The notes under the pieces were generated by a model that was not told the origin of the DNA, did no database searches, and was given only the letters and a program-made list of their open reading frames with translations. 64,000 bases of DNA from an uncultured Candidatus Saccharibacteria bacterium (GTDB lineage Bacteria > Patescibacteriota > Andersenbacteria > UBA10190): positions 409 to 64,408 of the forward strand of contig CAYHTZ010000004.1 in the NCBI GenBank assembly GCA_964359735.1, in the 5' to 3' direction. Below are positions 23,644-34,580 of the stretch, piece after piece; the stretch's first letter is position 1; each line of letters starts with the position of its first letter. The position numbers and the translations under genes were made by a program.

Positions 23644-23730
23644 GGTGGGGTGCGAGAGTGGTTTAATCGGGCAGTCTTGAAAACTGCTGTGGGTTAACGC
23701 CCACCGTGAGTTCGAATCTCACCCCCACCG
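23644..23730 (+). tRNA. tRNA-Ser (anticodon TGA), type II
   Basis: Acceptor GGTGGGG/CCCCACC, anticodon arm GCAGT-CTTGAAA-ACTGC, long variable arm TGTGGGTTAACGCCCACC, T-arm GTGAG-TTCGAAT-CTCAC. The layout matches E. coli tRNA-Ser(UGA). Confidence 0.8.
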
Positions 23731-23741
23731 CCGAAGGTCCT

Positions 23742-25190
23742 ATGACTAAAAACAATTGGGATATATACGAGAGGATTTATAGCAGTCACTGGTTTTTGAC
23801 AAGTTATAACGCCCAAGGTTTTGTCTTTGACTTCCCTGCCATGGGCGGCGGCAGCTTCATGACCCAAGCCGTGTACGTTATGGAGAAGGGCATGTGTCGC
23901 TATATATTCGACAGCGACGAATTCGAGCGGGCTGCGCAGTATACATCAGATCGTCTAATCAATGATGATAAATGGCGGGAGAATGTTTACCAGAACATTA
24001 ATTTGTACACGAGGCGGTATTTTGCGGCAGGTGAGAGATTACGAAAAACCCCTCTGGATACTCTTTCCCATGGAGAACTTGTGAAGATCGTTAGAGAGAT
24101 TATCCCTTTGCAACACTATCACCAAGTGTATAGTGTGCTGGCTAACGGCGTGGTGCTTGATGGGAGGAATCACTTGTCAGATAGGATTCGAGAGGAGTTA
24201 CGCTCTCTCATGGGAAGTCCAGATGACTTTGACGAGCAATGGTCTCTTCTTTCCCAGTCCGCCAAGATGAGTTTGAGGCAGCGCAAGGAACATGCTATCG
24301 CTCAGCTTGCCAGTGAGAGCAAAGTAACTTCCCGGGTAGTAGAGAGGAAGCTTCGCAACTTACATCAGAAGTACTGTTGGCTGGATTACAATAATATGGG
24401 CCCGGCGGCCTCATTTGAGAAGTTTGAGCAGGAGCTGGCGGAAGCTCGCAGCCAGAATAAGAACATTACTCTCAAAGAGGAACTCAAGGCTCTCAGAAAA
24501 AAACAGATCGATCTGATGCGCCGATTGAGAATCAGCCAGCGTGGGAAATTTCTCATTCGATTAGCGCAAGGAGTAATTTGGCAAAAAGGGTATCGCAAAG
24601 ATATGCAATATCACGGGTTTTATTGTTACGAAAATCTTTTTAGGGAATTGGCGCGCAGGCAAAACACCCCAGACTGGCAATCATTCTCGTATCTTTTTCC
24701 TTGGGAAGTGGTGCGTCACGTTCTTACCGGAAGTCATTCAGTGAAAGAACTCAATGAACGGCGAGAGTACTCTTGCTTGGTTGTGCGGAAAACAGGTCTG
24801 GAGGTTAAGGTGGGAAAGGCAGCGCAAGCGTTTGTAAAGGGCTTAGGGCTGCGGGAGGATTTCTCCACCATGACAGAAGCTAAAGGACAGTGTGCATATG
24901 CGGGCAAGGTCCGAGGAACAGTGAAAATTATTCAAACTCCGGCGGATATGGAGAAGATGAACGCTGGAGACGTTTTGGTTTCCCAGGCTACCAGCCCTGA
25001 CTTACTCTCGGCAATGAAGCGAGCGGGAGCGATTGTTACCAATACCGGCGGACTCATTTGCCATGCGGCGATTACTTCTCGTGAACTCAAAATACCGTGT
25101 ATTGTGGGGACCGCTAAAGCCACCTTGATCTTTAAGGATGGGGATCAGGTCGAAGTTGATGCCACCCACGGGCGTATAAGAAAGTTATGA
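23742..25190 (+). CDS. PEP-utilizing-enzyme mobile (phospho-His swivel) domain protein, paralog of 5636..7129
   Basis: C-terminal GGLICHAAITSRELKIPCIV. The N-terminal domain aligns with the first paralog (e.g. LDTLSHGEL vs LSKVSGGEL; CWLDYNNMGP...EKFEQEL vs GWMPVLAFGVPW...ERYESEL). The start is moved to the first Met clear of the tRNA. Confidence 0.7.
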   Translation: MTKNNWDIYERIYSSHWFLTSYNAQGFVFDFPAMGGGSFMTQAVYVMEKGMCRYIFDSDEFERAAQYTSDRLINDDKWRENVYQNINLYTRRYFAAGERLRKTPLDTLSHGELVKIVREIIPLQHYHQVYSVLANGVVLDGRNHLSDRIREELRSLMGSPDDFDEQWSLLSQSAKMSLRQRKEHAIAQLASESKVTSRVVERKLRNLHQKYCWLDYNNMGPAASFEKFEQELAEARSQNKNITLKEELKALRKKQIDLMRRLRISQRGKFLIRLAQGVIWQKGYRKDMQYHGFYCYENLFRELARRQNTPDWQSFSYLFPWEVVRHVLTGSHSVKELNERREYSCLVVRKTGLEVKVGKAAQAFVKGLGLREDFSTMTEAKGQCAYAGKVRGTVKIIQTPADMEKMNAGDVLVSQATSPDLLSAMKRAGAIVTNTGGLICHAAITSRELKIPCIVGTAKATLIFKDGDQVEVDATHGRIRKL

Positions 25191-25849
25191 GCAAGATCAA
25201 GGCAGTTATTTACGATGTGGACGACCTGATGGTTGATTCATACGCGTTGCATGTGGAGGCGTCGGAGAAAGCACTCGAACGGTACGGTCACAGATTCGAT
25301 GAGCTGCCCGAGGAGCTGCGGTCACACTTTGTGGGGAGACGGGTGATCGATAATTTGAAGGACACGGTGGCGTACCTCAAGCTCGATGTTGACCCTGAAG
25401 TCATGTATCAAGAACGATTGGCGCTTTTTCATAGACTCGTCCGCGAGAAACTTGAAGCCAGGCCGGGGCTGCAAGAATCCATGACGCTTTTCCGCAGGCA
25501 CAACTTGCGTCTCGCAATTGCTTCATCGGGGGCGGGGGAGTACCTCGATGCAGTGCTGGAAAAGTTTAACCTCGCCGGGTACTTCGAAGTGATTATCTCC
25601 GGCGGGGATGTGCAAAAGGGGAAGCCTGACCCCGAAACTTATTTGGTGGCTGTGCAGAAGCTGGGGCTTACCCCAGCTGAATGCCTGGTCCTGGAAGATG
25701 CCAAGAACGGTGTAGAGTCGGCAAAAGCGGCGGGTTGTAAATGTATCGCCATACGCAACCCAAACACTCCAGTTCAAGACCACTCGGGGGCGGACAAAGT
25801 TCTTAATTCTCTCAGCGACGTTACCATTGAGATGGTGGAGTCGTTGTAA
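25187..25849 (+). CDS. HAD-IA family hydrolase (beta-phosphoglucomutase-like phosphatase)
   Basis: DxD motif IYDVDDLMVDS, later K...GKPDP and a DAKNG motif IV. The start overlaps the stop of the upstream PEP-utilizer paralog. Confidence 0.75.
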   Translation: MSKIKAVIYDVDDLMVDSYALHVEASEKALERYGHRFDELPEELRSHFVGRRVIDNLKDTVAYLKLDVDPEVMYQERLALFHRLVREKLEARPGLQESMTLFRRHNLRLAIASSGAGEYLDAVLEKFNLAGYFEVIISGGDVQKGKPDPETYLVAVQKLGLTPAECLVLEDAKNGVESAKAAGCKCIAIRNPNTPVQDHSGADKVLNSLSDVTIEMVESL

Positions 25850-26265: not shown

Positions 26266-26502
26266 CTACATGCCGAGTGCTTTCTCCACCTCTTCCGCGG
26301 AGTTATAGGTGCCCTCAGGAAGATTATCCATAAACCATTTCTTGTCTTCGGCGGTGAAATCTGACATGCCGTTACAGGCGGCAACGAGATCTGCCTTTGT
26401 AGCAGGGTAACCCACATGTTCTTTCAAGTGCTGCTTCGCTCCAGCCATATTTTTCATCATACGGATCACCTCCTTGCAGTTAGTCTTTCTTGACTGTACC
26501 AA
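26266..26502 (-). CDS. DUF2795 family small protein
   Basis: HLKEHVGYPATKADLVAACNG...LPEGTYNSAEEVEKALG matches the DUF2795 pattern. The true start is probably one of the internal Met codons (about 60-64 aa product). Confidence 0.65.
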   Translation of the reverse strand: MVQSRKTNCKEVIRMMKNMAGAKQHLKEHVGYPATKADLVAACNGMSDFTAEDKKWFMDNLPEGTYNSAEEVEKALGM

Positions 26503-26579
26503 TGTTGGAGTGCCTAGCGCAAGGATGTGGCAAGTTCCTTCTTGAATCCGATGACCAGTTTGAGTATGCTCAGATACTT

Positions 26580-27455
26580 ATGCCAGAACTTCCTGAAGTG
26601 GAAACTATTCGTCGAGGGCTGGTGCAGCGTGTCCTGAAAAAGAAAATCCGGGGGGTAGAAATCCGCGCGGAGAAGGTGGTGAAGAATGACCCGAAAGAAT
26701 TTATTCGCACGCTTACGGGGAACACATTCACCAAGATCGATCGACGAGGAAAGCTCCTTATTTTACACCTCCGGGGTGTAAAGCGGGCGGAAAAGCCGCG
26801 ATTTCTATTAATCCATATGAAACTCACTGGCCAGCTCATTTACCAGCAAGGGGAAACGTTGGTAGCGGGTGGGCACTATGCTCCTTCCTTGGCACACCCA
26901 CTGCCGCACCGGCATACGCGCGTTATCTTTGAATTTGCCGATGGTTCGCGCCTGTTTTTCAATGATTTACGTAAATTTGGTGTCCTCAAGATTGTTGATA
27001 GAGCAGCGCGAGATTTGGTGTTGGCGGCGTACGGCGTCGAGCCCTTATCACGCGAGTTTACGTGGGAGCGGTTTCAGAAGGCGTTAGGGAGGCGGCAAGC
27101 ACCGCTGAAAGCGGTGCTCCTGAATCAAGCGCTGATTGCGGGGTTGGGGAATATTTACGTGGATGAGGTGGCCTGGCACGCGCGCGTGAGCCCCAGCCGC
27201 CGCGTAGCGCGTCTGACCGAGACGGAGCGCAAAAATCTTTTCCGGGCGATACCCAAAGTTCTGATCGAGGCTATTGCCTGGGGCGGCACAACATTCCGGC
27301 ATTTTCGTAATTCTCAGGGCAAGGAGGGCAATTACAGCGACCGCCTGCGTGCGTATGGAAGAAGTAGGAAGGCCTGCCGGCGATGCGGGGGAGTTATGGT
27401 ACGCACAACGGTGGCGCAACGCGGCACCACATATTGTCCCAGGTGTCAGAAGTGA
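26580..27455 (+). CDS. mutM: formamidopyrimidine-DNA glycosylase (Fpg/MutM)
   Basis: Starts MPELPEVETIRRGL (catalytic Pro2-Glu3). The C-terminal zinc finger is CRRCGG...YCPRCQK. The ORF track extends 5' to 26490, but MPELPEV is the conserved N-terminus. Confidence 0.85.
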   Translation: MPELPEVETIRRGLVQRVLKKKIRGVEIRAEKVVKNDPKEFIRTLTGNTFTKIDRRGKLLILHLRGVKRAEKPRFLLIHMKLTGQLIYQQGETLVAGGHYAPSLAHPLPHRHTRVIFEFADGSRLFFNDLRKFGVLKIVDRAARDLVLAAYGVEPLSREFTWERFQKALGRRQAPLKAVLLNQALIAGLGNIYVDEVAWHARVSPSRRVARLTETERKNLFRAIPKVLIEAIAWGGTTFRHFRNSQGKEGNYSDRLRAYGRSRKACRRCGGVMVRTTVAQRGTTYCPRCQK

Positions 27456-27468
27456 TAGGCTAGAAATA

Positions 27469-27999
27469 ATGGTGATGTTCGTTCGCAAGAAAGCGGCAAG
27501 ATTTTGGGCATGGTATGAGCGCTATTATGTTCTCAATGTCGGTATAGCCGTGGTCCTATTTCTGTGGCAGCTAGTGCATTTGTACTGGCTGGGAGCCGAT
27601 GTGATTGCGCAGCGGCTTACAGAAACAAGTTTTTTCCCGTTGAACGCGTTTTGGCGCACGTTGATTGTCTTGGTGGATTATTCAGAAATTCCGGCAATTA
27701 TTACGACGTCTCTGGTGTACATTAATGAACTGCGTAAACAGTTTCGATGGAACCCGCTGATCTTGCTTCTCATGCTCAATTCCCAGTGGCTGCATTTGTT
27801 CTGGATTACGGATGAGTTTGTGATCCATACATTTTTGGGTGAGCCACATGGCGGCACAGTGCTTCCGGTGTGGCTGGCGTGGGTTGCGATTCTGATTGAT
27901 TATTTAGAATTACCCGTTATCTTTGACATTGTGCGCCGCCTACTCCGGGCGCTGCGCCAAGGGTCAGGGTTAGAATTTATTCGTAAGGAAATGAGATGA
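27469..27999 (+). CDS. hypothetical polytopic membrane protein
   Basis: About 176 aa with multiple hydrophobic helices. The start is placed at the Met after the fpg stop. No domain recognised. Confidence 0.4.
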   Translation: MVMFVRKKAARFWAWYERYYVLNVGIAVVLFLWQLVHLYWLGADVIAQRLTETSFFPLNAFWRTLIVLVDYSEIPAIITTSLVYINELRKQFRWNPLILLLMLNSQWLHLFWITDEFVIHTFLGEPHGGTVLPVWLAWVAILIDYLELPVIFDIVRRLLRALRQGSGLEFIRKEMR

Positions 28000-28262
28000 A
28001 ACATGTAAGCATGATAGTCAAGGGAGACGTGCAGGGAGTTAATTTTCGCGCTCGGGTGAGGGAGAAGGCTAGGCAATTGGGCCTGACTGGTTTTGTGAAA
28101 AACATGAGCGACGGCACGGTATATATAGAAGCGGAAGGCGACGAATCTGCTATCGAGCGGTTCGTTGACTGGTGTCGGCAAGACCCCGGTTCCTCCCGGG
28201 TGGATGACGTGCGTGTGCACGAAGGAGTGCCTAAAGGATACACAGACTTTACGATTCGCTGA
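27996..28262 (+). CDS. acylphosphatase
   Basis: VKGDVQGVNFRARVREKARQLGLTGFVKN matches the acylphosphatase signature (V.G.VQGV.FR). Confidence 0.85.
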   Translation: MKHVSMIVKGDVQGVNFRARVREKARQLGLTGFVKNMSDGTVYIEAEGDESAIERFVDWCRQDPGSSRVDDVRVHEGVPKGYTDFTIR

Positions 28263-28274
28263 CGCCCTGGCGAC

Positions 28275-28709
28275 ATGAAACTCACGAGCCCGGCTTTTGA
28301 AAACGGAGAGGAAATTCCGGCGAAATATACTTGTAATGGTGAAGATGTTAGCCCGCCGCTGACGTTTTCGGATATATCTGCTGAAGCTAAGAGTTTAGTC
28401 CTCATACTGGACGACCCAGATGCGCCGGCGGGGGTGTGGGACCATTGGATTATATATGATATGCCACCGGATACGCGGGAAGTGCCTGAGGCCGCTGAAC
28501 CATGTGGGGTTCAGGGCAGAGGCACGAGCGGCAGTCTTGGGTACCAAGGTCCGTGCCCGCCGGATGGTGAACATCGCTATTTCTTCAAGCTTTATGCACT
28601 CGGTACCGTGTTGCGGCTGCCGGCCGGGGCGACCAAGGCCGACGTTGAAAGGGCAATGGAGGGCCATATTCTAGAGCAGGCGGAGCTCATGGGACGCTAC
28701 GCCCAGTGA
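28275..28709 (+). CDS. YbhB/YbcL-family PEBP (Raf-kinase-inhibitor-like) protein
   Basis: SPAFENGEEIP...LILDDPDAP...GVWDHWIIYD is the PEBP signature. ATGA overlap with the downstream gene. Confidence 0.85.
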   Translation: MKLTSPAFENGEEIPAKYTCNGEDVSPPLTFSDISAEAKSLVLILDDPDAPAGVWDHWIIYDMPPDTREVPEAAEPCGVQGRGTSGSLGYQGPCPPDGEHRYFFKLYALGTVLRLPAGATKADVERAMEGHILEQAELMGRYAQ

Positions 28710-30040
28710 AAATGTCTCAGGTTCTTCCACGAGCGCTGGATAACGTTTGGTACGAGGAGCTGCGCGGCTGCCGTGTGGCCTTGGCTCACTACCATTTTGC
28801 GAGCGCTATCGCTGAGTTTGCGGAAGAGCGGGGAAAATTCTTGGCTGGGACAGTGCGTAACCCAGCGTTGAAGTTTTACCGGCTGGATCTTGCGCGCTGC
28901 CAGGCTCAGCAGGATAGTTTGCATCGTCTTAAGGAGCGGATGGAGCGGATGGAACACCACCCGATTGTGAAGCGTCTATACCTGGCGAAGCTGGATGAGT
29001 ACTTGGCCCACGTGGGCATGATGATGGCGGCGGCTCAGGTCGATATGGGCCGGTTCGCTCATTTTGCGCGCATTGCGTATGGAACTCCCTCGCCGACTGT
29101 TTTTCAACAGGATTTGTACGAGATTAGAACTAAGGTGGAAGAGGCACTGTACTCCGGTGCACCGAATGCCGTGGCGGCCGCCCAGGCATTGCTGGCAGAT
29201 TTACCCTCGCTCACAACGGCAGAAAGCCCGAAGAGCGGAGTTGAATCGGGCCTCTTAGCAACTGTACGGGCATGGGTTACTCACGAGTATGCAGCACTCT
29301 TACCACCCCCGCGCGAAGGACAGTTAGAGACGGCAGAGCTTTCGGATTTGTTCAGACAGGCGTTGGTAAGCGTTGGGGCGGGTGATTGGCAAATCGTGAT
29401 TGACACGGTGACAAGCCGGCAGTCGATTAGTGTTCAATCTATGCACCAACGGGTTCGTATTCCGATCTCACGTCAAGTTTCAGGGGCTGAGCTCGGGCGT
29501 CTGCTTGTTCACGAGGTAGGAACTCACGTGGTCCGAAGGATCCGCGGCAATCTGGCACCACTGCGCCTGTTGGCGAGGGGCCTGGACCACTACGAGCGAG
29601 GTGAAGAAGGTATTGCTACCGTGTATGAGCAAGGCTTGAGCGGGTCCGTCAGTGACTACGATCGACTGGCTAGCCACCTGGCTGTCTGTCTGGCATTAGG
29701 TTTGGATGGTAAGCCACGTGACTTCCGAGATGTATTCGAAATTTTAGTACGGTACTACTCCTTGGTTGGGCTCTCTAAGGCGGATCTTTCTCAAGTATCA
29801 GAACGGGCGCGGGAGCAGGCTTGGAGACGCTGTGTGCGGGTGTTCCGGGGAACCGATTATAGGAGTCCTGGGATTTGTTTCCCTCGAGATTACTTGTACC
29901 GGGAGGGCAACACCTTGATATGGGAGCTGTTGAAAGACGATTTCCGGTGGCTTGATCGGTTTCCTATTGGCAAGTACGACCCAGCGAATCGAGAACACGT
30001 GGAAGCGTTACGCGGTCTGGGAATTCTGCCGGCTGCTTGA
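28706..30040 (+). CDS. DUF1704 / MATCAP-like putative metallocarboxypeptidase (HExxxH...QEGLA-motif family)
   Basis: HEVGTH at aa 269-274, followed 26 aa later by EEGIA, a close variant of the family's conserved QEGLA. Length of 444 aa is typical of the family. Confidence 0.55.
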   Translation: MKMSQVLPRALDNVWYEELRGCRVALAHYHFASAIAEFAEERGKFLAGTVRNPALKFYRLDLARCQAQQDSLHRLKERMERMEHHPIVKRLYLAKLDEYLAHVGMMMAAAQVDMGRFAHFARIAYGTPSPTVFQQDLYEIRTKVEEALYSGAPNAVAAAQALLADLPSLTTAESPKSGVESGLLATVRAWVTHEYAALLPPPREGQLETAELSDLFRQALVSVGAGDWQIVIDTVTSRQSISVQSMHQRVRIPISRQVSGAELGRLLVHEVGTHVVRRIRGNLAPLRLLARGLDHYERGEEGIATVYEQGLSGSVSDYDRLASHLAVCLALGLDGKPRDFRDVFEILVRYYSLVGLSKADLSQVSERAREQAWRRCVRVFRGTDYRSPGICFPRDYLYREGNTLIWELLKDDFRWLDRFPIGKYDPANREHVEALRGLGILPAA

Positions 30041-30084
30041 CGTTCTCGGTCCCCACGTGGTGAGATGAGAACGGATTTTTTATT
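30041..30084 (+). terminator. terminator/attenuator-like hairpin CGTTCTC-N19-GAGAACG followed by GATTTTTTATT
   Basis: 7-bp stem with a large loop (containing the CCACGTGG palindrome) and a U-run, between the MATCAP-like gene and the ATP-grasp gene. Confidence 0.4.
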
Positions 30085-30099
30085 ACGACCTGACGTCAT

Positions 30100-30966
30100 A
30101 TGGCATTTTATTATATTGATAACGAGTTTGGCCTGCGCGCCCGCCTGCTGGCGGAGGCGAGCCGCAAGGCGGGGGTAGAGTTTGTTCAGGTTCGCCCCGA
30201 TGAGTTTGATAACACGCAGATTCCAAACCTTACTCGCTCGGATTTTCTGTACCGGGGCGTAGCGAAGCATGATTGTCCAACAGCAGTAATTGTAGAGCGA
30301 CTCTTGCTGAACGACAGTGTCACCACATTTTATAATTCTCCTGAGATCGGGCGGGGAACAAGACTAGGTTCGTTCGTTATTCACAGCAGCGCTGGTATAC
30401 CTATTCCTAAGACCGTGTGGTCACTCACGCGGGATACGTCTGTTCTGAAACGGTATGTGGACTACCTAGGTGGATTTCCTGTTGTTATCAAGGTTCTGAA
30501 TTCAAGCCGCGGGGCCGGCGTGATGCGCGCTGATTCCTGGCAGAGTTTAGTTTCCCTCAACGATTACTTGCTGCGCAGTGATCAGGTGTTTGTCCTGCGT
30601 GAATTTATCGATGTGGGCGTGCCGGCGCATTCGTGTCGAGCAGTGGTGTTGGGAGGCCAGGTAACAGTTGCCTACCGCATGCAGCAACCGGAAGGCGACG
30701 ATTTTCGCTCCAATGCGGGCAAGCGGCTGCGGCAGCGGACTCTTCTTACCTTAATCGAGCAAGAGCAAGCAACTATGATCCTGAGTGTCGAGTCACTGGG
30801 CTTGGAGCTAGGGGCGGTGGATTTCGCCTACACTGCAGAAGGTAGGCTTGTCGTATTCGAAGTAAATTTCCCTTTTGCTTTTGGGTCAGTTCTCACCAAG
30901 CTTCAGTACGACCTGCCTGGCGCGATGGTCGCGTACTTGCAGAAGAAAAGTTCGTGGCAGGCGTGA
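30100..30966 (+). CDS. ATP-grasp family ligase (RimK/LysX-like amidoligase)
   Basis: GGFPVVIKVLNSSRGAGV (K..G.GV ATP loop), EFIDVG...R.VV.GG, and VDFAYTAEGRLVVFEVN (Mg-binding D/E/N); 288 aa. Confidence 0.7.
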   Translation: MAFYYIDNEFGLRARLLAEASRKAGVEFVQVRPDEFDNTQIPNLTRSDFLYRGVAKHDCPTAVIVERLLLNDSVTTFYNSPEIGRGTRLGSFVIHSSAGIPIPKTVWSLTRDTSVLKRYVDYLGGFPVVIKVLNSSRGAGVMRADSWQSLVSLNDYLLRSDQVFVLREFIDVGVPAHSCRAVVLGGQVTVAYRMQQPEGDDFRSNAGKRLRQRTLLTLIEQEQATMILSVESLGLELGAVDFAYTAEGRLVVFEVNFPFAFGSVLTKLQYDLPGAMVAYLQKKSSWQA

Positions 30967-30967
30967 T

Positions 30968-31522
30968 ATGAGCTACCCTTCGCCGCTAGCATTGCAGCTT
31001 CCCCTTGAACCGTACGAGGTGAGAGAGGGCTACTACAAATTCGGCACGCGCGTACGCAGCCGCGTGATACTTTCTGCGCGGCACTTGGGGGACGATTTAG
31101 TTGTGGCGGCGGTAACCCTGGTGCTAGCATTTGGCGAGGGCTTGTTAGTTTGGGCTGGGGTGCGGGCGGGGAGCAAAGAGACACGTAATTGGGGAGGGCT
31201 CGTGGTCTTGGCTCACCAACGTAAAGATTTTGAAAAAGGACGCGACATCCCGGAGACATTTTATTCCGTATATGGGCATATGAAGGATTTGACGGTGAAG
31301 GTGAAAGACACGGCAGCCGCAGGGCAACAGCTCGGAGTGGTAGCGCCAGGGGAGACGCCCGAAAACGGCTGGTGGAAGATTGCTCATTTACATTTTGCCA
31401 TTTATGTGGGGGCATGGACGGGAGAAATTTTGCCGGGGTATAAGCGGCCGTTTGACGGGCGGACAAAAATGAAGTGGTGGCGGGATCCGAAACCATTCAT
31501 CGAGGAATACAATAAAGGCTAG
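30968..31522 (+). CDS. M23/LytM-family peptidase domain protein
   Basis: HLGDD (HxxxD) and KIAHLHFAIY (HxH) motifs at M23 spacing, and the intervening pattern matches the M23 consensus. Uses the ATG at 30968, 1 nt after the ATP-grasp stop. Confidence 0.6.
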   Translation: MSYPSPLALQLPLEPYEVREGYYKFGTRVRSRVILSARHLGDDLVVAAVTLVLAFGEGLLVWAGVRAGSKETRNWGGLVVLAHQRKDFEKGRDIPETFYSVYGHMKDLTVKVKDTAAAGQQLGVVAPGETPENGWWKIAHLHFAIYVGAWTGEILPGYKRPFDGRTKMKWWRDPKPFIEEYNKG

Positions 31523-31555
31523 AAGCTACGAGCTAAAAGCTATAAGCTAGTTTGT

Positions 31556-33337
31556 ATGGCTGGTGAAACAGACCTTGTTAAAGAGCGCCTCGATTTGGCC
31601 GATGTGATCGGCGAGTACGTGCCCTTAAAACGCACGGGTGCACACTTTAAGGGCTTGTGCCCTTTTCACCAAGAGAAAACGCCGTCGTTTATCGTGAGCC
31701 CAGAGAAAGGAATTTGGCATTGTTTTGGGTGCGGTAAAGGCGGGGATGTATTTGTTTTTATTCAGGAGATAGAAGGAGTAGCTTTTCCGGAAGCCTTGAA
31801 GCAATTGGCAGAGCGTGCCGGAGTGCCCATTCGACGCACTTCGTTTGCTCAGGGCAAAGAGTCTCAGAGCAAAAAACAGAGACTCTTTGAAGTGTTGGGT
31901 CTGGCGGCGAAGTTTTACCATGCGGTGCTGATGCAGCACGAAGCGGGCAGGCGCGCGCAGGCGTACTTAGCGGAACGGGGAGTACGGGAAGAAACGATGC
32001 GGGAGTTTGAACTGGGGTATGCACCGATGCGCTGGGATACGGTGCAGAAGTTTTTGCAGAAGAAAGGGTTCTCTGTAGAAGAGATGATACAAGCCGGGCT
32101 GGTGGGAGCAGGGCAGGGGGGAAAATTCTACGACCGGTTTCGAGGACGGATTATGTTTCCCGTCACCGACGTGCAAGGCAGAATCGTTGCCTTTGGGGGG
32201 CGCATTGTGCCTTGGCACGCTACTGGAGAGGAAGGCAAGTACATTAATTCGCCCGAGACGGCTTTGTATGAAAAACGCAAGACAGTCTATAACCTATCGC
32301 GCGCGAAAGCAGTGCTCCGGGGCGGGGGAGCTGGCATTGTGGTAGAGGGATATATGGATGTGGTGATGCTGGCTCAGGGGGGAGTGAAGAATGTGGTGGC
32401 GACGAGCGGGACAGCGTTTACGACAGAACATATACAGCAGCTCGGCCGGTACACGAAGACATTGCATTTTGCCTTTGATGCGGATGCAGCGGGGAGCGCT
32501 GCCACCGTGGGGGCCACCGAATCAGCGCTCGATGCCGGGATGCGAGTGGCCACGCTGGTGCTGCCCGCTGGCGAAGACCCGGCGGACATAGCAGCGAAGC
32601 GCCCCCAGCAAGTTCAGGAGATATTTTCTAAGCCGAGATCGCTCATCTCAGTGTTACTGGAGCGTATGGATAGCGAGGAGGATGGGCGTCTCGCGGAGGA
32701 ACATGTCGAAACTTTGCTGCCGCTGCTGACGCGAGTGCATAATGTGGTGCTCAAGGGAGAGATGGTGCGAGAGATAGCCGAGCGGTTGACAATTCCTGAA
32801 AGTGATGTGGTGCGCAGACTATCACAACCCTCGCGCCGCATTCAACCTATCCATACAGTAGGGCAAGAGGTGCAGTATCAAGGGGACCCTCTTAGCAACG
32901 CGGAGCGAGTATTGCTTGGAATTATGGTCATCAGTCCATCGGCCCGAGAAATGCTTTGGGGAAATCTCCGCGGGGAACTCTTCGTTGACGGCCGTTTGCG
33001 GGAGCTGTATAACACAATGCATAATCTGGCACAAAAGGACATGAACTGGGCGCGCGCGGGAGAGGAGGAGCTGGTTGCTGCTTTGACAAGCCAGCAGCAG
33101 CCTTTGGTGCAGGCTGTATCAGTATTGGCTCATGAAGCTCTGGATAGGTCGGGAGCCGGCGCCGCGGCTGAGGCACAGGTGCTCACGCGAGCGCTGCAGC
33201 GGCGCTACCTTTCCGGGCACCTCAAAGAAATTCAGACCAAGCTGGTGACGGCGCCGGAGGCGGAAAAGCAAGGCATTCTGAAACAATTTCAAGGGGTCGC
33301 GGAAGAACTTTCGGCAGTGACGTCTCAGGAGGGTTAA
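31556..33337 (+). CDS. dnaG: DNA primase
   Basis: Zinc-ribbon [11 protein letters not shown]...HCFGCG, and a Toprim region (EGYMDVV). Confidence 0.9.
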
Positions 33338-33341
33338 CTAT

Positions 33342-34580
33342 ATGGCACACTCGCGTTCCCGTGTTCGTCATCGTAAGGCCGTTAAGCGCTCGCGGCCAGC
33401 TGCCCGCAAAGGCGGGCGCTCGGCTAGCCGCTCGCGGGGCGGGCGGGGAGGCAGGCGGGCAAAGATCGACCCCCAGATGGTTTTGACTTCGGAGCTGGTG
33501 ATTGCGCTCTTGCGCAAGGGGCTCCAGGCAGGGTTTGTCACTGAGGAAGAAATTTTGTATGCGTTGCCCAATGTTGAAGAGAACTTGGACGCGCTGGAAT
33601 CCATGTATAACGAGTTGGAGAACCAAGGCATACGCATCACTGCGGCGCAGGATAGCCTTATTTCTTACGACATGCCGGATAAGCTGCCCACTAAACGGGC
33701 AGCGCGCCGCGAGAAAGACAGACCGCTCGATAATGTGATTGATGTCAGTAATATTTCGGATGATTCGGTGCAAATGTATTTACGCGAGATTGGGAAAGTG
33801 GCGCTCTTAACCGCGGATGAGGAAGTGGAGCTGGCGAAGCGTATTGAGCAAGGCGATAACGAAGCGCGCAAGCGCCTGGCGGAAGCGAACTTGCGCTTGG
33901 TAGTATCCATTGCCAAGAAATACACCGGGCGCAAGAATTTGTCGCTGCTGGATTTAATTCAGGAAGGCAACTTGGGACTCTTCCGTGCCGTGGAAAAGTT
34001 CGATTACCGCAAAGGCTATAAGTTTTCTACGTACGGCACGTGGTGGATCCGCCAAGCAATCACGCGGGCCTTGGCTGACCAATCCCGCACTATCCGCATC
34101 CCCGTGCACATGGTGGAGACGATTAATAAGTTTACGCAGGTACAGCGGCGCTTACTGCAGGACTTAGGGCGAGACCCCCTGCCAGAGGAGATCGCGTCCG
34201 AGATGGAACTGCCGGTAGAGAAGATTCGGCACATTATGAAAATTTCCCAGGAGACCGTGTCCATTGACGCCTCAGTAGGAGATGATGAAGAGGATTCCAC
34301 GCTGAAAGATTTCATTGAAGATGAGGAAACCATTACGCCGGGGCAGGCGGCCGCGCGGCAGATTTTGCAAGAACATGTGCGGGAAATTTTGGCGGACCTC
34401 ACCCCGCGGGAGCAGAAGATTTTGGAAATGCGGTTCGGGCTGACCGACGGGCTCAATCACACGCTGGAAGAAGTCGGCCGGGAATTCGAAGTTACCCGTG
34501 AGCGTATTCGGCAGATCGAGGCCAAGGCGCTGGAAAAAATCCGCGAACACATGAAACTCAAGAAACTCCGTGATTATTAA
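33342..34580 (+). CDS. rpoD: RNA polymerase sigma-70 factor RpoD with an Arg-rich N-terminal extension
   Basis: Regions 1.2-4 are present ([24 protein letters not shown], region 4 HTH). The first ~45 aa are Arg/Gly-rich ([11 protein letters not shown]). Confidence 0.9.

Follow-up and report, generated by a model that had tools for sequence, protein, structure and literature searches.

The window considered here is a stretch of 64,000 nucleotides (nt) from an uncultured Candidatus Saccharibacteria bacterium (assembly GCA_964359735.1, contig CAYHTZ010000004.1), in which two neighbouring genes on the forward strand encode a 444-residue gluzincin of the MATCAP/DUF1704 family (28706-30040) and a 288-residue ATP-grasp ligase of the RimK clade (30100-30966). 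We hold with moderate confidence that the two form a minimal cytoplasmic module which would add residues to, and trim them from, a C-terminal amino-acid tail or an oligopeptide. The pair is flanked upstream by a gene for a 144-residue YbhB-type PEBP (28275-28709) and downstream by a gene for a small M23 metallopeptidase, 184 residues long from its ATG (30968-31522), both products being free of a signal peptide. A first-pass annotation had placed these four genes on the forward strand upstream of dnaG and rpoD, as the list of open reading frames (ORFs) confirms, and had proposed that the ligase, the MATCAP-like protein and the M23 peptidase belong to one system for ligating and trimming peptide C-termini.

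With the Pfam gathering score taken as the threshold for a domain call, all four proteins exceed it: the PEBP for PF01161 (PBP, 144 bits), the MATCAP-like protein for PF08014 (DUF1704, 73.8 bits with a cutoff of 27), the ligase for PF08443 (RimK-like, 56 bits with a cutoff of 21) and the M23 protein for PF01551 (36.7 bits with a cutoff of 28.7). The domain assignments of the first-pass annotation thus hold, and at the finer level of NCBIfam all matches fall far below their equivalog or subfamily cutoffs. None of the four soluble proteins carries an N-terminal hydrophobic segment, and none is matched by the anti-phage defence models of PADLOC. Judged by the names of homologues, the organism belongs to the Patescibacteria (CPR).

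In the MATCAP-like protein, HEVGTH occupies residues 269-274 and EEGIA begins at residue 300, just as had been read from the sequence, and the catalytic residues H269, E270, H274 and E301 do not vary among 12 homologues. The protein has the MATCAP fold, with its two motifs aligning to HEIGTH and EEGLA of 7z5g; the next-best peptidase folds are those of the M32 carboxypeptidases and ACE. It is probably a cytoplasmic zinc carboxypeptidase. Its identity to any homologue is at most 39%, within a clade of approximately 764 clusters at 50% identity (E up to 1e-30), and it misses the equivalog cutoff of the QEGLA family TIGR02421 by a wide distance (68.5 vs 338.65). The human members TMCP1 (KIAA0895L, solved as MATCAP) and TMCP2 act as carboxypeptidases on Tyr and Glu at C-terminal ends (PMC10499314). 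Human MATCAP1/TMCP1 and TMCP2 (KIAA0895) share approximately 20% identity with the window protein, which differs from MATCAP in being bacterial, in having no tubulin to act upon, in that its activity is predicted, and in an N-terminal helical region of some 200 residues that aligns weakly and in a short motif only. A special closeness of the window protein to eukaryotic MATCAP was considered and rejected, as single-sequence searches place human MATCAP equally far from it (E 0.022) and from a proteobacterial QEGLA protein (E 0.045).

The ligase likewise retains the residues typical of active ATP-grasp enzymes: K131, G138, G140, D201-F202-R203, D241, E254 and N256 are unchanged across 23 homologues. 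Its glycine-rich loop lies where the first-pass annotation had seen it but reads SSRGAGV rather than GSRGAGV. The best matches of the family profile in the PDB are RimK structures (4iwx/5zct, E ~3e-35), followed by ArgX and LysX, whereas Ddl is matched weakly (E ~6e-7). For the AlphaFold2 model (predicted local distance difference test 92.7), the top Foldseek match is RimK 5zct (template modelling score 0.83) and the best structural matches are RimK, LysX and ArgX. The likeness that had been drawn to both RimK and tubulin tyrosine ligase (TTL) therefore stands in its first half and was overstated in its second, for the TTL model of Pfam (PF03133) leaves the protein unmatched at E up to 0.1; by sequence and by fold it is of the RimK clade and not of the TTL clade. 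It is nevertheless not a RimK orthologue: a RimK_N match is absent, and the protein scores below the cutoffs of both the RimK family TIGR00768 (64.1 vs 143.4) and the S6 ligase PRK10446 (55.7 vs 331).

Evidence that the two families belong together comes from 71 MATCAP-like loci, obtained by scanning one genome per species and almost all labelled Patescibacteria (about a dozen are metagenome-assembled genome records titled otherwise, as Gammaproteobacteria, Bdellovibrionales or Micavibrio; numbers beginning with L denote loci of our comparison). An ATP-grasp gene is present in 35 of these loci, no more than three genes away in 33, on the same strand in 27 and directly adjacent in 10. Counted by gene, ATP-grasp ORFs account for 76 of 1067 in the MATCAP-like loci but for 4 of 616 in control loci, which were anchored on M23 and drawn from the same phylum (odds ratio 11.7, Fisher p 1.7e-11, uncorrected for shared ancestry or phylogeny), and the link persists across many differing gene orders.

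Clustering of the neighbouring genes shows a recurrent operon in which 7TM_transglut (PF14402), ATPgrasp_ST (PF14397) fused to a RimB-like protease (PF05618) and one to three RimK-like ligases are followed by optional genes for a family 4 glycosyltransferase (GT4), GNAT or YdjC, then by the MATCAP-like gene and usually by PBP1A. This multi-ligase operon, which we call Rlo-like, was seen in L040, L043, L059, L062, L079 and approximately 20 other loci (e.g. L043:3300-11500). PBP1A lies directly downstream of the MATCAP-like gene in about 19 of the 71, an LCP-family gene lies near it in L052 and L068, and GT4, YdjC and GNAT genes are found amongst its neighbours. Saccharibacteria carry a MATCAP-like gene beside canonical RimK and RimB, in two gene orders. 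At L003:3425-8886 the MATCAP-like homologue P0004 is situated in the dcw cluster, where ftsW and murG flank it and ftsA-ftsZ follow a few genes downstream.

Viewed from the ligase, ten contexts could be compared. Three of them (the window, L081 and L171) place a MATCAP-family gene next to the ligase, five (L081, L082, L171, L172 and L174) contain a multi-ligase operon, and three show the M23-dnaG arrangement. Most relatives of the window ligase belong to Rlo-like multi-ligase operons that adjoin genes of the cell envelope. At L171:5158-11305, two MATCAP-family genes in succession (500 and 355 residues, with faint Pfam matches) break up a run of ATP-grasp genes, which includes one of the window type; a DUF192 gene downstream of that run recurs near RimK in L006 and L081.

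The same two families also meet outside the phylum. On alpha-proteobacterial plasmids, genes for an N-formylglutamate amidohydrolase (FGase), a QEGLA (DUF1704) protein and an ATP-grasp 'glutathione synthetase' occur together, with an ATP-grasp gene adjacent in five of six plasmid loci; the triad, with a QEGLA protein of approximately 620 residues, stands at L165:2977-6721 and L166:1534-5231, and a degraded copy in L167. A gene table for V. vulnificus lists VV2_1203 (COG3930) and VV2_1204 (COG0189) side by side (PMC3091676), and the proteobacterial adjacency is in that sense already visible in public annotation. A literature search for DUF1704, QEGLA and COG3930 returned gene tables only, and in the literature covered, which did not extend to the amidoligase survey of Iyer et al. 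2009, no paper analysing this adjacency was found. As in the window, then, a peptidase of this family adjoins an ATP-grasp ligase, but with differences: the window protein has EEGIA instead of QEGLA and 444 residues against some 620, it is without an FGase partner, and its ATP-grasp neighbour shows no significant similarity to the proteobacterial 'glutathione synthetase' (BLASTP E 8.8). The searchable literature yielded no biochemistry for the proteobacterial QEGLA proteins. Because the adjacency recurs in both Patescibacteria and Proteobacteria, we regard the link as real at the level of the families, and the functional tie between ligase and carboxypeptidase that had been proposed from the window alone is supported to that extent; of the nearest relatives, neither L080 nor L036 has both genes. 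Of the two outcomes that the first-pass annotation had named as fatal to its proposal, the lack of any DUF1704 match and an adjacency kept in no related genome, neither was obtained.

Neighbourhoods that combine ATP-grasp ligases with peptidases are a known theme. RimK attaches Glu at the C-terminus of RpsF, from which RimB takes it off (PMC11957791), and this demonstrated cycle gives the logic of adding and trimming a precedent in bacteria. The window ligase is nearest to RimK in sequence and fold, and a C-terminal ligase with a dedicated hydrolase would be the logic shared; the hydrolases differ, a gluzincin here and a retropepsin in RimB, and the window is without rpsF and rimB. A second comparison is the RloABC operon of Pseudomonas, which comprises a 7TM inactive transglutaminase, an ATP-grasp enzyme and a retropepsin-like protease. 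It resembles the recurrent patescibacterial operon, and operons carrying its domain families (PF14402, and PF14397 fused to PF05618) also contain relatives of both window genes. Passages of a preprint on RloABC report that loss of the operon in Pseudomonas alters cell shape and osmotic tolerance and that 96% of RloB sequence matches fall in Proteobacteria, and make no mention there of a MATCAP-family member (PMC11957051). The 64-kb window itself holds no RloA-, RloB- or RloC-type gene that we could find. Thirdly, TTL and TTLL enzymes together with detyrosinases and deglutamylases set an ATP-grasp ligase against a carboxypeptidase on a C-terminal tail, and share the MATCAP family with the proposed module; the window ligase lies outside the TTL family, and no tubulin-like target was identified. 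By analogy, the pair would follow the working of RimK/RimB and, in broad terms, that of TTL(L)/MATCAP, whilst belonging to the MATCAP and RimK-like domain families only. The tubulin cycle and the three-enzyme system offered by the first-pass annotation both exceed this evidence.

The mechanism we propose begins with the ligase, which would spend ATP on activating a free carboxylate (if it behaves as RimK does, the alpha-carboxylate at the C-terminal end of a peptide or protein) and would then attach an alpha-amino acid, possibly repeatedly. The MATCAP-family zinc enzyme would take C-terminal residues off again, either setting the length of the tail or oligopeptide or recycling it, so that the two activities may be antagonistic. 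The window pair could be understood as a stripped-down form of the Rlo-like multi-ligase operons found in other Patescibacteria. As acceptor, a small non-ribosomal peptide or an envelope-related precursor seems somewhat more likely than a tubulin-like protein or a protein tail, given that the Rlo-like operons of relatives lie beside PBP1A, LCP and glycosyltransferase genes and that loss of RloABC has the phenotype described above. The M23 and PEBP genes would, on this account, be neighbours through local layout. In five relatives fpg stands directly upstream of the M23 gene, which argues that the 3.5 kb between fpg (26490-27455) and the M23 gene in the window is a lineage-variable slot, adjoining the fixed series M23-dnaG-rpoD.

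MATCAP was recognised as a tubulin-tail carboxypeptidase only in 2022-2023. The present comparison ties a large patescibacterial clade of MATCAP-like proteins, in a systematic way, to RimK-type C-terminal ligases and to multi-ligase operons of the Rlo-like kind, and the window presents the simplest, two-gene version of that pairing. The result is a testable hypothesis on what bacterial DUF1704 proteins do, on what is made by the Rlo-type ligase operons, whose loss in Pseudomonas changes cell shape and tolerance to antibiotics, and on the origin of the eukaryotic cycle by which protein tails are added to and trimmed.

Several points weigh against such a module. The enrichment of ATP-grasp genes is, as noted, uncorrected for phylogeny, and approximately every second MATCAP-like locus is without an ATP-grasp gene within 8 kb, for instance where the gene lies beside recR or in the dcw cluster. 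L080, which holds the closest homologue of the window ligase (54% identity), reads membrane protein-PEBP-ligase-M23-dnaG-rpoD and is without a MATCAP-like gene; conversely, L036, an Andersenbacteria locus, has a MATCAP-like gene, an AAA_14/DUF4143 ATPase and M23-dnaG-rpoD, and is without the ligase. The sole sizeable intergenic gap of the array, complete with a terminator-like hairpin, falls exactly between the ligase and the MATCAP-like gene. Searches with phmmer and patescibacterial queries found neither 7TM_transglut, ATPgrasp_ST or RimB-like genes nor rpsF in the 64-kb window, no acceptor candidate was identified for the pair, and no biochemical study of any bacterial MATCAP-family protein was found in the literature.

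One alternative is that chance made the two genes neighbours: the slot between fpg and M23 would gather unrelated accessory genes, and ligase and peptidase would act on different substrates here. Its cargo does vary among relatives (membrane protein, acylphosphatase, PEBP, MATCAP-like, ATP-grasp, AAA/DUF4143), ligase and MATCAP-like gene each occur in it without the other, 59 nt with a hairpin and a U-run separate the two in the window, and the MATCAP-like protein is at most 39% identical to its homologues where the M23 protein reaches 71%. Against this stands the linkage of the same two families elsewhere, which greatly exceeds chance and spans many gene orders and two phyla; as the window genes belong to families so linked, their adjacency here is unlikely to be accidental.

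A variant that keeps the partnership but changes its target would have the RimK-type ligase and the MATCAP-family carboxypeptidase reversibly edit, by adding and removing amino acids, the C-terminus of a protein of the cell, such as one that acts in the ribosome or in division. This would be a bacterial forerunner of the tubulin-tail code, and the MATCAP family would have had a C-terminal ligase as its partner already before its recruitment to tubulin in eukaryotes; we consider this rather unlikely. Editing of a cell-wall precursor would give the pair an envelope substrate instead, with the MATCAP-like enzyme trimming a peptidoglycan stem or other envelope peptide in the cytoplasm, the ATP-grasp enzyme adding an amino acid to that precursor in the manner of Ddl or an ATP-grasp branch ligase, and M23 serving as the matching peptidase of peptidoglycan type. 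The envelope genes that surround MATCAP-like homologues (PBP1A, LCP, GT4, YdjC and GNAT, and ftsW-murG in L003) speak for this, as do the effects on cell shape and osmotic tolerance reported in passages of the RloABC preprint (PMC11957051) and the standing of M23 as a family of peptidoglycan peptidases. The window pair, however, is not flanked by envelope genes, the ligase is far closer to RimK, LysX and ArgX than to Ddl, peptidoglycan is not a known substrate of the MATCAP family and M23 is only weakly linked to the pair, all of which makes such editing improbable.

The place of the M23 gene can be judged independently. In its product H39 and D43 (the HxxxD motif), H104, and H140 and H142 (the HxH motif) are invariant in 28 homologues, and close homologues share 45-71% identity, far above the conservation of the MATCAP-like protein. 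The series M23-dnaG-rpoD (dnaG at 31556-33337 and rpoD at 33342-34580 in the window, taken as context) is kept in every close relative with enough sequence, with or without the ligase and the MATCAP-like gene, and was seen in L036, L080 and L087-L104. A small M23 protein without a signal peptide is encoded directly upstream of dnaG-rpoD in the window (26490-34580), L088, L092, L096, L099, L102, L080, L101, L089, L104 and L036. What precedes it varies, be it fpg, PEBP, ATP-grasp or MATCAP-like genes in differing combinations. Of some 15 loci with upstream sequence, only four, the window included, have an ATP-grasp gene directly upstream of M23 (in a fifth, L104, one lies beyond rpoD), and only two distinct arrangements, again counting the window, have a MATCAP-like gene. 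Among the 71 MATCAP-like loci this M23 occurs in L036 alone, and distant members of its family have unrelated gene neighbours. M23 as a general partner was accordingly rejected, and its proposed membership of the system is not borne out: since the block is kept in relatives and distant M23 genes stand in unrelated contexts, the gene is most likely a resident of the conserved M23-dnaG-rpoD block, adjacent to the module without being part of it. A weaker link between ligase and M23 is possible, for an ATP-grasp gene abuts or overlaps the start side of M23 in three further loci and in two subtypes, that of the window (L080, L101) and 'grasp3' (L089).

The least probable of the alternatives is the three-enzyme system itself, in which M23 would be a second hydrolase on the shared substrate (e.g. 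an endopeptidase for the added peptide) and PEBP a coupled regulator: the single nucleotide between ligase stop and M23 start, which the first-pass annotation had rightly reported, the abutting ATP-grasp genes just listed, the 1.3 kb between M23 and a MATCAP-like gene in L107, the same compartment implied by the missing signal peptide and the recurrence of PEBP in L080 and L104 speak for it, but are outweighed by the constancy of the block, by the five loci with fpg directly upstream, by the rarity of M23 in MATCAP-like loci, by the unrelated contexts of its distant relatives and by its tight abutment to whichever gene lies upstream (gaps of approximately 18-170 nt), as expected in a compact genome.

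The PEBP gene does overlap the start of the MATCAP-like gene at 28706, though through GTGA and not the ATGA that had been described, with a GTG start at 28706 and the PEBP stop TGA at 28707-28709; an in-frame ATG of the MATCAP-like ORF follows at 28712. In yeast, the PEBP Tfs1 inhibits carboxypeptidase Y, and with a PEBP gene overlapping the start of a predicted carboxypeptidase gene a regulatory role is conceivable. PEBP precedes ATP-grasp and M23 in L080 and M23 in L104, in both cases without a MATCAP-like gene. None of the 71 MATCAP-like loci has a PEBP gene; coupling as a general feature, and PEBP as a general partner, were rejected on that count, and PEBP is best described as a local neighbour whose membership of the module is unproven.

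The 59-nt spacer between the two core genes (30041-30099) contains a hairpin at 30041-30073 and a run of six U at 30076-30081, which had been suggested to set the relative expression of the genes. Its fold is no better than that of shuffled sequence (free energy -13.8 kcal/mol, z -0.5) and the terminator scan made no call there; a function is doubtful, and the hairpin was rejected as a regulator or terminator.

The same-strand array extends beyond the genes discussed so far. Between fpg and PEBP, the ORF list gives a 175-residue multi-pass membrane protein (27472-27999), for which Pfam returns no match, and an acylphosphatase (27996-28262), and a cyclophilin gene lies downstream of rpoD. The membrane protein shares 67% identity with its positional counterpart in L080. 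In the ligase's place in L036, between the MATCAP-like gene and M23, the AAA_14/DUF4143 ATPase (L036:9425-10555) carries a helix-turn-helix domain, and a member of its family also follows the MATCAP-like gene in L079. Further upstream in the window, at 23706-25849, a 494-residue ORF ends in a motif like that of the mobile domain of PEP-utilising enzymes (GGLICHAAITSRE) and is followed by a HAD-type hydrolase.

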